Shown piece by piece: positions 22,589 through 27,118 of a stretch of DNA of 39,479 nucleotides. Below the pieces are notes generated by a model. The model was not told where the DNA came from, made no database searches, and saw only the letters and a program-made list of their open reading frames with translations. This DNA is from Candidatus Omnitrophota bacterium (GTDB taxonomy: Bacteria; Omnitrophota; Gorgyraeia; Duberdicusellales; 4484-171). Where the stretch lies: positions 1 through 39,479 of the forward strand of contig JALOBR010000002.1 of NCBI GenBank assembly GCA_023228195.1, read 5' to 3'. A program made the position numbers and the translations under genes. Within the stretch, counting starts at the first letter, position 1; each line of letters begins with the position of its first letter.

Positions 22589-23536
22589 ATGAAATTATCA
22601 CCGCTATTCTGGCCGATTGAATTAAAAGGTAGCACTATTTATATACTCGACGAAACTCTTCTGCCCCATAAATTCAAATATATAAAAGCAAAAGATTATA
22701 AGCAGGCTGTCAAAGCGATTAAAGATATGAAAACTCGCGCTGTCGGCCAGGTAATTCTTGTCTTTTATATTTTTCTTCTGGTTATAAGAAAGAATAAAAA
22801 CAAAAAAGACATAAAACCAATTCTCTTTAAGCTCGCCGAAAGCATAAATGCCGCGCGGCCGACTTTGTCCTTTAAATATCTGACAGATATGATTTTGGGC
22901 TGGATGGTTTCCGGTGCGCCCTTAGAAAAAAGCATACTTGGATTTTTAGAAATACTTAAAAATAAACGCATCCAGCAGGCTCGTGCGATGAGTGAATTGC
23001 TAAATGACGGCGACAGTATTCTTACGCACTGTAATATCAGTGGTCAGATGCCTTTAATCGGAGAGCTGGCCCGTCAGCAAAACAAAAAGGTAAAGTTTTT
23101 TGCTACGGAAACAAGGCCTTATTTGCAAGGCTCCCGCTTAACCGCCTGGGAATTACAAAGGCAGGGTTTTGATGTAACATTAATTTCGGATAACATGGTG
23201 GCGCAGGTTATGTATGAGAAAAAAGTAAATAAAGTAATTGTCGGAGCGGATCATTTAGCCCAAAACGGCGACATCGCTAATAAGGTCGGCACTTACCAGA
23301 TTGCTATTTTAGCGAAACATTTTAATGTGCCTTTTTATGTTTTATGCCCGCCACCCTCGCGCTCAAGAACCGGAAAAGATATCACAATAGAAATCAGGCC
23401 GCAAATAGAATTGCTGGAATACCAAGGGATTTCGCTTGCGCCGAAAGGGGCAAAAGGGTATTATCCCGCCTTTGATGTTACGCCCAACAATTTAATTACG
23501 GAGCATATTTACTTAGAAATCAACGATAAAGTTTGA
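22589..23536 (+). CDS. MtnA/eIF-2B-family sugar-1-phosphate isomerase (methylthioribose-1-P / 5-deoxyribose-1-P isomerase-like)
   Basis: GAGGA RBS. THCNISG (catalytic Cys), ETRPYLQGSRLTAWEL, GADHLAQNGDIANKVGTY (catalytic Asp) and PAFDVTP. Confidence 0.82.
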   Translation: MKLSPLFWPIELKGSTIYILDETLLPHKFKYIKAKDYKQAVKAIKDMKTRAVGQVILVFYIFLLVIRKNKNKKDIKPILFKLAESINAARPTLSFKYLTDMILGWMVSGAPLEKSILGFLEILKNKRIQQARAMSELLNDGDSILTHCNISGQMPLIGELARQQNKKVKFFATETRPYLQGSRLTAWELQRQGFDVTLISDNMVAQVMYEKKVNKVIVGADHLAQNGDIANKVGTYQIAILAKHFNVPFYVLCPPPSRSRTGKDITIEIRPQIELLEYQGISLAPKGAKGYYPAFDVTPNNLITEHIYLEINDKV

Positions 23537-23586
23537 GCAATTTAACTTTCTAACTTTCTGTTTATTTGAATTGCTCTTTTACTTTT
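23535..23586 (+). terminator. Terminator-like hairpin after the MtnA-like gene
   Basis: GAGCAATT (23535-23542) pairs with AATTGCTC (23569-23576) and is followed by TTTTACTTTT. The loop is large (26 nt), hence moderate confidence. Confidence 0.4.
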
Positions 23587-23740
23587 GGCCGCACAGTCGG
23601 AGATAAAAGCAGATTTAAAAATAATATAAAGGCTAATTTTTTTCACCTAATATCCAAACCAATGCACTTCGCATAACAAAAGCGCCTGTTTTCTTCAAAT
23701 ACGGTAAGCGGCTAACCAGCCGGCTAAAGCTATAAGCGTT

Positions 23741-24220
23741 TTAGTGTTTTAAATTTTCTTTCAATTTCGAGCGAGTTAGATAAAAAAAGACCCAAATAAC
23801 ATAACAAGCTAAGACTAAACATATCAAAGACAACTTGATAAAAAGCGAATAGGAATGAACGTAAACTCCTTGTGCAATCGTATGTGGTTTGGAAAATTCG
23901 GCAAGCTTCCAGAACAAAAAGGCAAGAAAGCCGATAAAAACGGCAACCATAACATTGCCTGCCAATATAATATTAGTTGACGCTATAAATTTTTTTAACT
24001 TAAATGTGCCCCAACCTGCCATAAAACAAATAAGGGGTATACTGCCAAGTAGGATAACCAGCGCAATATAACTGGCAATGATTTCTGGCCTTTCGAATTT
24101 ATTCCTAGCGCTGGGGAAAAGCTGGTGTATTAGAAAAACAAACATAAGCGATGAATATAACCCGACAATCCAATCTACCCCCGCAATCATTTTAAGTCCA
24201 AGAGGTATGCCTTTTTTCAT
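23741..24220 (-). CDS. Hypothetical integral membrane protein (about 5 TM helices)
   Basis: GGAGGGG RBS on the - strand just upstream of ATG 24220. Strongly hydrophobic 159-aa ORF. It is the only opposite-strand gene inside the accessory block. Confidence 0.65.
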   Translation of the reverse strand: MKKGIPLGLKMIAGVDWIVGLYSSLMFVFLIHQLFPSARNKFERPEIIASYIALVILLGSIPLICFMAGWGTFKLKKFIASTNIILAGNVMVAVFIGFLAFLFWKLAEFSKPHTIAQGVYVHSYSLFIKLSLICLVLACYVIWVFFYLTRSKLKENLKH

Positions 24221-24402
24221 ATCCCCTCCATTAAGCAGAAATTGTTTTTCTGTAAAATTAATATATTAAAACTGCCCCTGGAAACCCTTGAATAAATATT
24301 AGCACCCAATGGCCGTTATGCAATAAAATTGTTAAGATTGTTAAAAGAATTCAGTGTTTTATCTTATCTTGGCATCTGGAAAACCTGTCCTCAAAAATCC
24401 CT

Positions 24403-25457: not shown

Positions 25458-25465
25458 TTTTAACT

Positions 25466-25611
25466 AAATAACCAAATCCCAAGATACAATAACCAAACAA
25501 TGACCAATAACCAAAGCTTAATAACCAGACAAAAACCAATATCATCGTTTGATTGTTGGTTATTGAATATTGGAGTTTGTTTGGAGCTTGTATCTTGGTC
25601 ATTGGTTATTT
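25466..25611. repeat. CCAA-rich / TTGG-rich long imperfect palindromic element, copy 2 (upstream of the aldehyde dehydrogenase)
   Basis: AAATAACCAAATCCCAAGATACAA... pairs with ...TTGTATCTTGGTCATTGGTTATTT. The arms are built from AACCAA / TTGGTT units. Confidence 0.6.
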
Positions 25612-25621
25612 CATAAAAACA

Positions 25622-27118
25622 ATGATTCCTCATTACCCCTTATTTATCAACGGTGAATTTAAGGAAACTTCAAAGAAGCAGGATGTGATTAATCCTTCAA
25701 CCGGCGAAGTTATTGCAACCGTAAGTATTGCGGAAGCCGGAGAAATCGATTATGCAATAAAATCCGCGCGTGACGCTATAGATTGCGGCCCGTGGCGAAA
25801 CTTTACTTTAGCCGAGCGCAAGGATTTCATTCTAAAAATATCGCAAGGCATCCTTGACCGTGCCGCTGAATTAGCCAGCCTTGAAAGCTTAAACGCCGGT
25901 AAACCCATAAAAGAGACAACCTTTATGGATATCCCTTCTGCTGCGGCTACATTTGATTATTTCGCTAATAATTTAGAAAAATATCTGGCAAAAGAAAACG
26001 TAGAGATAAATTCATCTATTGCCAGCGCGCAGAGCAATTTAGTGCGCGAGCCACAAGGCGTGGTCGTTTTGATAGTTCCCTGGAATTACCCGCTTTTAAT
26101 CGCTTCTTGGAAGTTGGCTCAGGCGCTCGCCGCCGGTAATGCCATTATCTTAAAACCTTCAAGCTTAACCCCGCTTTCTGTTTTGGAATTGGCAAAGATA
26201 ATAAAAGAAGCGGGTTTGCCCGCCGGAGCGGTAAATATAATAAATGCAAGCGGCGATACAATGGGCGAGGCTTTGTGCTCCGATTCCAGAGTAGATATGA
26301 TTTCTTTTACCGGTTCAAACGCAGTAGGCAGAAAAATCCTGGAATATACGTCAAAAAACGTAAAAAAAGTTACTATGGAATTAGGCGGTAAATCAGCAGC
26401 TATAGTTTTAAAAGATGCTGATTTGGAATCTGCAGTTAACGGCTTGTTATGCGCAATATTTTTAAATCAGGGGCAGATGTGCACCGCGATGTCGCGTATC
26501 TTAGTTGAAGAAAGCATTTATGATGATTTCGTAAATGATTTTGTAGCTAAAGCAAAACGTATAAAGCTCGGCCCGGCGCTTAACTTCGAAACTCAGATGG
26601 GTCCGCTGATGTCAGAGGCCCAGCGCAAAAAGGTATTGGAATATGTAGGAAAAGGAAAAACAGAAGGCGGCAGACTTTTATGCGGCGGAGGCATTCCGCA
26701 GCAGGAAGAATTTAAGAAAGGTTTTTTCTTTGAGCCGACTGTATTTGGTGATGCTTCACCAAAAATGAAAATATTTAAGGAAGAAATTTTTGGCCCGGTT
26801 GCCTGCATAAGTAAATTTTCTTCAATTGAGGAAGCTGCGGCATTAGCCAATGATTGTGTTTTTGGTTTAGCGGCGTCTGTGTGGAGTAAGGACGGTTCAA
26901 AAGCGAAAAATTTGGCTAAAGTAATTAATGCAGGCACAGTATGGGTTAATACTTACGGAATGTTTTTTAATGAGCTGCCTTACGGCGGATTCAAGCAGAG
27001 CGGCTTTGGAAAAGAACTTGGAAAAGAAGGATTGTTGGAATATACTAGGCTTAAGAATATCGTTACTGATAAAACCGAAGGTTCAAAGCCGCTGGTAAAT
27101 TATTGGTACGGTTTTTAG
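25622..27118 (+). CDS. NAD(P)+-dependent aldehyde dehydrogenase
   Basis: MIPHYPLFINGEF start, PWNYP, ELGGKS, catalytic Cys in NQGQMCTAMSR, and EEIFGPV. The tracked TTG 25553 start lies inside a hairpin element. Confidence 0.88.
   Translation: MIPHYPLFINGEFKETSKKQDVINPSTGEVIATVSIAEAGEIDYAIKSARDAIDCGPWRNFTLAERKDFILKISQGILDRAAELASLESLNAGKPIKETTFMDIPSAAATFDYFANNLEKYLAKENVEINSSIASAQSNLVREPQGVVVLIVPWNYPLLIASWKLAQALAAGNAIILKPSSLTPLSVLELAKIIKEAGLPAGAVNIINASGDTMGEALCSDSRVDMISFTGSNAVGRKILEYTSKNVKKVTMELGGKSAAIVLKDADLESAVNGLLCAIFLNQGQMCTAMSRILVEESIYDDFVNDFVAKAKRIKLGPALNFETQMGPLMSEAQRKKVLEYVGKGKTEGGRLLCGGGIPQQEEFKKGFFFEPTVFGDASPKMKIFKEEIFGPVACISKFSSIEEAAALANDCVFGLAASVWSKDGSKAKNLAKVINAGTVWVNTYGMFFNELPYGGFKQSGFGKELGKEGLLEYTRLKNIVTDKTEGSKPLVNYWYGF

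Follow-up and report, generated by a model that had tools for sequence, protein, structure and literature searches.

We analysed a 39,479-nucleotide stretch of DNA, hereafter the window, from a Candidatus Omnitrophota bacterium (GenBank assembly GCA_023228195.1, contig JALOBR010000002.1, positions 1 to 39,479, forward strand). It carries a one-strand gene cluster in which a B12-binding radical S-adenosylmethionine (SAM) enzyme and a ketosynthase/chain-length-factor (KS/CLF) pair are accompanied by genes for a nucleoside phosphorylase, a sugar-phosphate isomerase, an aldolase, an aldehyde dehydrogenase (ALDH) and an acyl ligase. These five genes probably specify a dedicated, lineage-specific version of the dihydroxyacetone phosphate (DHAP) shunt for 5'-deoxynucleoside salvage, one that is extended by two steps to an acyl thioester, with 5'-deoxyadenosine as the probable input. 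Well over a hundred uncultivated species of Omnitrophota retain this set next to a B12-radical SAM gene. An initial annotation, made from the letters of the window alone, had likened four of these genes to the DHAP shunt. All four are real open reading frames (ORFs) with intact catalytic residues, and the likeness is supported, at the level of sequence, by gene families, catalytic residues and conserved gene order. The genes of main concern are as follows:

8344-9996, plus strand: ANL (AMP-forming) acyl ligase, FadD/4CL-like (Pfam AMP-binding and AMP-binding_C)
9993-10721, plus strand: diverged family-1 (hexameric type) nucleoside phosphorylase (PF01048 PNP_UDP_1, E 8e-34)
12810-15692, plus strand: KS (12810-14063), CLF-like partner (14048-15292) and acyl carrier protein (ACP, about 15460-15660) (Pfam, NCBIfam; PP-binding)
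19252-20709, plus strand: B12-binding radical SAM enzyme (PF02310 and PF04055)
22589-23536, plus strand: MtnA-like sugar-1-phosphate isomerase, a short diverged paralogue (IF-2B/MtnA family, E 5e-53)
24456-25457, plus strand: class II (zinc) aldolase with a C-terminal SCP2 domain (Aldolase_II plus SCP2)
25622-27118, plus strand: NAD(P)-dependent ALDH (Aldedh PF00171, E 4e-168; ATG at 25622)

In the proposed route, the diverged phosphorylase would split 5'-deoxyadenosine, released by the neighbouring B12-radical SAM enzyme and the approximately 36 other radical SAM enzymes of the genome, into adenine and 5-deoxyribose-1-phosphate, which the MtnA-like isomerase would convert to 5-deoxyribulose-1-phosphate. 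The zinc aldolase-SCP2 protein would then cleave this sugar to DHAP and acetaldehyde, the ALDH would irreversibly oxidise the aldehyde to the acid, thereby pulling the cleavage forward, and the ANL ligase would re-activate the acid as an acyl thioester (acyl-CoA or acyl-ACP). The net outcome would be conversion of 5'-deoxyadenosine, a toxic side product that radical SAM enzymes leave behind, to adenine, DHAP and acetyl-CoA or acetyl-ACP; 5'-methylthioadenosine (MTA) may serve as well, giving a methylthioacetyl unit. Aldol cleavage of this kind is strongly unfavourable (PMC6079011), so a sink for the aldehyde would be useful, and irreversible oxidation by the ALDH would fit. In this scheme, what the substrate is, what each enzyme does and where the acyl unit goes are all predictions from gene families, intact catalytic residues, conserved gene order and paralogy.

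The proposed salvage enzymes and their lineages

The start of the phosphorylase gene overlaps the stop of the ANL ligase gene by ATGA at 9993-9996, with an AGGAG box upstream, confirming the coupling noted in the initial annotation. The best solved relative of the protein is the hexameric MTA phosphorylase of S. solfataricus (1JDS, E 1e-24). By E. coli DeoD numbering, all of 72 orthologues have G20, R24, R87, S/T90, M180 and D204, so that the phosphate site (G20, R24, R87 and S/T90) and the catalytic aspartate (D204) are kept throughout. The ribose pocket is altered: His4, which in E. coli PNP binds the ribose 5'-OH, is replaced by Met or Ser in all but one orthologue, Arg43 by Leu, Met or (once) Phe, and Glu181 by Val. 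The phosphorylase is thus predicted to cover the step from nucleoside to 5-deoxypentose-1-phosphate, with no need for a kinase. Its assignment to family 1 holds, and within that family it is hexameric DeoD/SsMTAP-like. It falls far short of the cut-off of the DeoD model (88 bits, cut-off 230), and no MTAP model matches it, placing it outside the MtnP (MTAP) family. True MtnP genes lie on two other contigs of the genome (315-317 bits, cut-off 275). These contigs (C116 and C130 of G000, the source genome; loci L003 and L004) show the same proC-mtnP-PfkB kinase arrangement and near-equal scores, which probably reflects strain heterogeneity in the assembled genome and not a true duplication. An HpnG-type role for the module phosphorylase was considered and rejected (39 bits against a cut-off of 187).

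The isomerase has T. maritima MtnA as its best solved relative (1T9K, E 2e-49). Sequence alignment of 94 orthologues shows the Cys of the THCN motif and the Asp of the GAD motif, the catalytic pair named in the initial annotation, to be retained; the window protein also keeps two phosphate-binding Arg motifs. Set against the canonical MtnA paralogues of related genomes, the protein lacks 5 residues after the RPT motif and 7 residues after THCN and is shorter at its C-terminus; the two deletions affect loops that adjoin the catalytic Cys and the RPT motif. Using curated model cut-offs and paralogue comparison as a proxy for phylogeny, we find that it does not belong within canonical MtnA: on the MtnA equivalog model (cut-off 279 bits) the window protein scores 234 and the module forms generally 152-234, against 424-428 for the separate, long-form canonical MtnA of relatives. 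Most of 60 related genomes carry two IF-2B genes, one of 300-320 aa that is always beside the aldolase-SCP2 gene and one of 345-370 aa that lies elsewhere. Among five genomes devoid of the module, a class II aldolase was not found in three and is represented by a weak partial match in one, and in the fifth the domain occurs within a much longer open frame. Given this IF-2B paralogy, and little or no class II aldolase in module-less genomes, isomerase and aldolase are both module-specific, a pattern shared with the drd cluster of Bacillus (PMC6079011). A housekeeping shunt merely parked beside the polyketide synthase (PKS) genes had first been considered because the source genome has a single IF-2B-family gene and a single Aldolase_II gene; it was rejected in view of the second, canonical MtnA of relatives and of the scarcity of class II aldolases where the module is missing. 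A role as ribose-1,5-bisphosphate isomerase was likewise rejected (113 bits against a cut-off of 314). As side observations, the near-complete genomes G048, G056 and G059 possess a canonical MtnA and no class II aldolase, and some more distant clusters contain a 151-162-aa ORF between isomerase and aldolase (L025:4211-4666, minus strand; L015:15492-15980, plus strand), which matches only the C-terminal half of the IF-2B fold and is absent from the lineage of the window.

In the aldolase, the triad His94/His96/His155, Glu76, Gly29 and Asn30 are invariant across 42 homologues, and Ser28 (of the Ser28-Gly29-Asn30 motif) and Ser75 are nearly so. The protein called a class II aldolase in the initial annotation is accordingly predicted to possess the zinc-binding histidines, the catalytic Glu and the DHAP phosphate site of the class II metal-dependent aldolases. 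An AlphaFold model of the fusion (mean pLDDT 86.8) has an aldolase fold matching FucA, DrdA (6BTD) and YgbL; Foldseek searches with the whole model returned matches to the aldolase domain only. The C-terminal 120 residues are a true SCP2 domain: PF02036 is matched by 10 of 10 diverse members (best E 1.4e-8), and a profile of the domain matches the T. thermophilus SCP2 structures 2CX7 and 1WFR. This fusion is a new feature, foreign to the described shunt enzymes as had been noted at the outset, and could be a sign that the aldehyde is channelled or that the substrate is hydrophobic. It yielded 187 matches in species-representative genomes and, among the 80 matches listed, was found only in Omnitrophota, if some entries labelled Planctomycetes-type or generic are taken, as we do, to be automatic mislabels. 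In a sample of 151 Omnitrophota genomes it is present in 23 and concentrated in certain families.

The ALDH is confirmed as such by its Aldedh match and ATG start; its similarity to ALDH2 is about the same as that to betaine-aldehyde dehydrogenases (E about 1e-121). The best NCBIfam model for the ligase is PRK06187 (418 bits, below the cut-off of 476), and among solved structures the ligase comes nearest to 4CL and FadD enzymes and not to acetyl-CoA synthetase.

Conservation and gene neighbourhoods

The source genome (G000) is metagenome-assembled, with 1.47 Mb and 88% completeness. Within the window the cluster reads, on one strand, ANL ligase, PNP_UDP_1 phosphorylase, ApbA-TIGR04076 reductase, KS, CLF-like protein, ACP, two cyclases, MFS transporter, SDR, B12-binding radical SAM enzyme, Amidohydro_2, class IV aminotransferase, MtnA-like isomerase, class II aldolase-SCP2 and ALDH, so that the salvage genes are split between its two ends. 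We compared about 106 related loci by tblastn. The isomerase lies at most 2.5 kb upstream of the aldolase in 83 of the 85 loci with enough flank, and the ALDH at most 1.2 kb downstream of it in 75 of 87, with 10 more where it stands behind two inserted genes. The grouping of the salvage genes is not due to chance.

Three layouts persist across families and orders. Layout A, that of the window, has ligase and phosphorylase at the 5' end and isomerase, aldolase and ALDH at the 3' end. The commonest, layout B, reads KS-CLF-radical SAM-ACP-cyclases-SDR-Amidohydro_2-phosphorylase-isomerase-aldolase-ALDH-(small protein)-ANL ligase, with the last five enzyme genes overlapping or abutting. Layout C is minimal (PadR-ANL ligase-radical SAM-phosphorylase-isomerase-(half IF-2B)-aldolase-ALDH-MMPL) and is seen in genomes with no CLF orthologue. 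Phosphorylase, isomerase and aldolase genes are contiguous in both B and C. The contiguous and overlapping order phosphorylase-isomerase-aldolase-ALDH-(x)-ligase in relatives also backs the earlier suggestion that the ligase receives the oxidised aldehyde. Two genomes depart from these layouts: G042 keeps ligase, phosphorylase, aldolase and ALDH on a contig that ends inside the ligase, so that the flank is not seen, and G037 keeps only phosphorylase and aldolase. G037 and apparently G042 have neither the module radical SAM enzyme nor the module isomerase and do have a canonical MtnA; the substrate therefore appears to be independent of that one radical SAM enzyme and to pass through canonical MtnA in these organisms. 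Our literature search found no paper on this Omnitrophota cluster.

A few neighbouring genes deserve mention. The ApbA (ketopantoate-reductase-like) protein with a C-terminal TIGR04076-family domain (11136-12743) is kept upstream of KS in full clusters. Upstream of the cluster, a 216-aa charged protein with no Pfam match is encoded at 6328-6978; its homologues (59-66% identity) are situated between ALDH and ligase in many layout-B clusters, and it could be a further component of the system, perhaps a regulatory one. The gap of 919 bp between isomerase and aldolase (23537-24455) looks like a recent insertion, the two ORFs overlapping in the close relative G001. It holds a minus-strand ORF for a 159-aa hydrophobic protein (23741-24220), rejected as a pathway member because it is membrane-protein-like, has no Pfam match and has no room in G001. 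Minimal modules end in an MMPL/RND-type, sterol-sensing-like transporter (L025:2-1774, minus strand; L034:6396-7010) and layout-B clusters contain a CBM_11-like protein; these two features give a hint that what the wider cluster makes is associated with lipid or the envelope.

Links to the radical SAM enzyme and the KS/CLF pair

The B12-radical SAM enzyme is BchE/HpnJ-like, scoring well under the model cut-offs, and comparison with solved structures offered no clue to its function, with AprD4 and TokK matching at 45-55 bits. An orthologue occurs within 10 kb in 37 of the 40 loci with long flanks, making it the gene most faithfully co-inherited with the salvage set, more so than KS/CLF. It is likely to be the local source of 5'-deoxyadenosine, in a genome with 37 radical SAM matches in 1.5 Mb. 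The CLF-like partner (14048-15292) has Lys in the column of the KS catalytic Cys (VADKASS, the Cys/Gln position) and is missing both catalytic His residues; by these residues it would be neither a KS nor a Gln-type priming CLF.

The initial annotation had placed the salvage set inside a PKS cluster by a B12-radical SAM gene, and had wondered whether it removes a by-product or diverts carbon into the polyketide. The radical SAM part of this stands. As for KS/CLF, orthologous clusters do carry the salvage genes across genera, families and orders, but the pair is not their tightest partner. Ligase and ACP are both present in the cluster, yet minimal modules occur without a CLF orthologue. Obligatory coupling to the PKS is rejected on two counts, namely nine genomes that have aldolase-SCP2 and no CLF orthologue, and G008 and G022, in which KS/CLF lie 250-680 kb from the salvage block with its radical SAM gene. 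Dedicated by-product removal with recovery of carbon is better supported than an obligatory feed into the polyketide, and KS/CLF/ACP are a possible acceptor of the activated acid.

A stronger form of this coupling can be envisaged, which we hold to be rather unlikely. Each time the radical SAM enzyme of the cluster modifies a polyketide, the 5'-deoxyadenosine (or a 5'-substituted analogue) set free would be turned, by way of its ribose carbons C5'-C4', into the acyl-AMP or acyl-ACP with which the following chain starts, so that the loop is closed; loss of the priming residue from the CLF would make the KS/CLF pair depend on such a salvaged starter. About one-fifth of the species would, in addition, have the hitherto unreported CoA-dependent branch treated below, which would serve the same purpose without free aldehyde.

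An LsrF-like thiolase and a zinc alcohol dehydrogenase in the proposed salvage block

In 22 related loci, including that of the congener G001 (L006:16430-18373), the salvage block contains an LsrF homologue and a zinc MDR alcohol dehydrogenase, positioned between aldolase and ALDH or just 3' of the ALDH; the pair is absent from the source genome. The LsrF homologue has 45% identity to E. coli LsrF and keeps its Lys motif. The alcohol dehydrogenase is nearest to threonine, sorbitol and butanediol dehydrogenases, which oxidise a secondary alcohol that in threonine and butanediol is adjacent to a methyl group. It could similarly oxidise C4 of 5-deoxyribulose-1-phosphate to 3-hydroxy-2,4-pentanedione-5-phosphate, the substrate of LsrF. 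As summarised in PMC7828210, which cites PMC4191781, LsrF with CoA converts this compound to DHAP and acetyl-CoA. The two enzymes may thus provide a second route to the products of aldolase, ALDH and ligase, one that favours a methyl (5-deoxy) terminus, and the pair points to 5-deoxyribulose-1-phosphate as the intermediate and acetyl-CoA as the end product. We found no paper on LsrF acting on 5-deoxyribulose derivatives.

Alternative interpretations

Several observations weigh against 5'-deoxyadenosine salvage to acetyl thioester as the function of the module. The canonical MtnA seen in relatives was not found in the source genome, which is 88% complete. If the aldehyde is acetaldehyde, the invariant lipid-binding SCP2 domain has no role, and ALDH followed by an ATP-consuming ligase is a costly way to acetyl-CoA. 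The ligase looks FadD/4CL-like rather than like acetyl-CoA synthetase. The phosphorylases of layout B score best on uridine phosphorylase models, which makes even the nucleoside base uncertain, and the remodelled isomerase loops and phosphorylase ribose pocket may mean a different 5'-substituent. An unlikely alternative is the same five-step chemistry on another nucleoside, such as MTA, giving methylthioacetyl-CoA, or a lipid or polyketide adduct of adenosine. The radical SAM enzyme would form the latter, in the manner of adenosylhopane or aminofutalosine, with SCP2 holding the hydrophobic tail and the ribose C5'-C4' being left as an added two-carbon acid. The invariant SCP2 fusion, the FadD-like ligase and the remodelling of the phosphorylase and isomerase pockets, the former hydrophobic around the 5' position and the latter with shortened loops, keep a larger or hydrophobic substituent in play. 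It is also favoured by MMPL or MFS exporters beside the module, by the separate housekeeping MtnP and MtnA genes, and by the fluoroacetate pathway, where phosphorylase, isomerase, aldolase and ALDH act on a 5'-substituted deoxyadenosine (PMC3999930). On the other side, phosphorylase and aldolase persist in G037 and G042 in the absence of both the radical SAM enzyme and the special isomerase, the LsrF-like partner normally transfers an acetyl group, and no fluorinase-type gene is found in the cluster. Adenosylating radical SAM enzymes, moreover, are not known to have a B12 domain.

The resemblance of layout-B phosphorylases to uridine phosphorylase, along with a weak match of the aldolase to the haloarchaeal ribulose-1-phosphate aldolase model (63 bits), would also fit ordinary nucleoside or pentose catabolism, in which ribose-1-phosphate split from a nucleoside passes via ribulose-1-phosphate to DHAP and glycolaldehyde, then to glycolate and glycolyl-CoA, and the radical SAM link is incidental. 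This appears very unlikely, given that the residue binding the ribose 5'-OH is lost from the phosphorylase, that the isomerase is nearest to MtnA (249 bits, against 113 for ribose-1,5-bisphosphate isomerase), that a B12-radical SAM gene accompanies the set in 37 of 40 loci, and that the block has no sugar transporter or kinase. We attach hardly any weight to a further reading, whereby the genes begin canonical methionine salvage and the aldolase-fold protein is an MtnB dehydratase acting on methylthioribulose-1-phosphate. Class II aldolase-fold proteins do include MtnB, and second among the sequence matches to solved structures is Aquifex aq_1979, which carries the deposited name of a putative class II aldolase and which we presume to be MtnB-like. 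The matches to two MtnB models, however, are weak (63 and 81 bits, far under the cut-offs of 137 and 226), and the ALDH that is always next is explained only by an aldehyde-releasing aldolase. The remainder of the methionine salvage pathway was likewise looked for elsewhere in the 88%-complete genome, and no MtnD (ARD dioxygenase) or RuBisCO-like gene was found; judged by their many radical SAM genes, the organisms look anaerobic. Salvage of 5'-deoxyadenosine thus remains the interpretation that we favour.

Significance and comparison with known systems

If this interpretation is correct, it lengthens the three-step DHAP shunt into a complete route by which the two halves of 5-deoxyribose, in the form of DHAP and an acyl thioester, re-enter central or biosynthetic metabolism. 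A salvage pathway and one particular radical SAM/polyketide-type cluster would have evolved together here, in a phylum that is uncultivated and has many radical SAM enzymes, and the module would offer a concrete candidate source of starter units for a type II-like PKS whose CLF cannot prime. The alcohol dehydrogenase and LsrF-like pair also suggests a new physiological role for LsrF homologues outside the degradation of quorum signals.

The core chemistry is known; novelty lies in the lineages of the enzymes, the SCP2 fusion, the extension by ALDH and ligase, a possible branch through LsrF and the stable embedding with B12-radical SAM and KS/CLF genes. The DHAP shunt of Rhodospirillum rubrum and extraintestinal E. 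coli uses MtnP or MtnN/MtnK, MtnA and Ald2 (PMC10986504, PMC12632272). The three reactions predicted for the Omnitrophota set, and the folds of its enzymes, are those of this shunt: nucleoside phosphorylase, then an isomerase of the MtnA family that has the Cys and Asp, then a zinc-dependent class II aldolase yielding DHAP and an aldehyde. The set differs in that the phosphorylase is hexameric and DeoD/SsMTAP-like instead of MtnP, the isomerase is a shortened paralogue under the MtnA cut-offs, an SCP2 domain on the aldolase, an ALDH and an ANL ligase are added, and the genes lie inside or beside a B12-radical SAM/KS-CLF cluster. Also comparable is the DrdK-DrdI-DrdA cluster of Bacillus thuringiensis for disposal of 5-deoxyribose, of which phosphorylase-type variants exist; this too is a dedicated paralogous set for a radical SAM by-product, alongside separate methionine-salvage genes (PMC6079011). 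DrdA (6BTD) is among the best structural matches of the Omnitrophota aldolase, but sequence similarity to it is no higher than to FucA; further, the Omnitrophota set has no kinase, would process the aldehyde further and has the SCP2 fusion as a new element.

Four steps of the same logic lead from 5'-deoxyadenosine with a 5'-substituent to a substituted acetate, there in biosynthesis, in the fluoroacetate pathway of Streptomyces cattleya and Nocardia brasiliensis, with its FlB phosphorylase, 5-FDRP isomerase, aldolase and fluoroacetaldehyde dehydrogenase (PMC3999930). In contrast to that system, whose FlB is MtnP-like and which lacks a ligase or SCP2, the Omnitrophota cluster has no fluorinase or chlorinase. 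Finally, the known products of LsrF in the autoinducer-2 pathway of E. coli, DHAP and acetyl-CoA, are those predicted for the module, although the Omnitrophota homologue occurs without LsrK, LsrG and LsrB, has a zinc alcohol dehydrogenase as its partner instead, and would draw its substrate from 5-deoxyribulose-1-phosphate.

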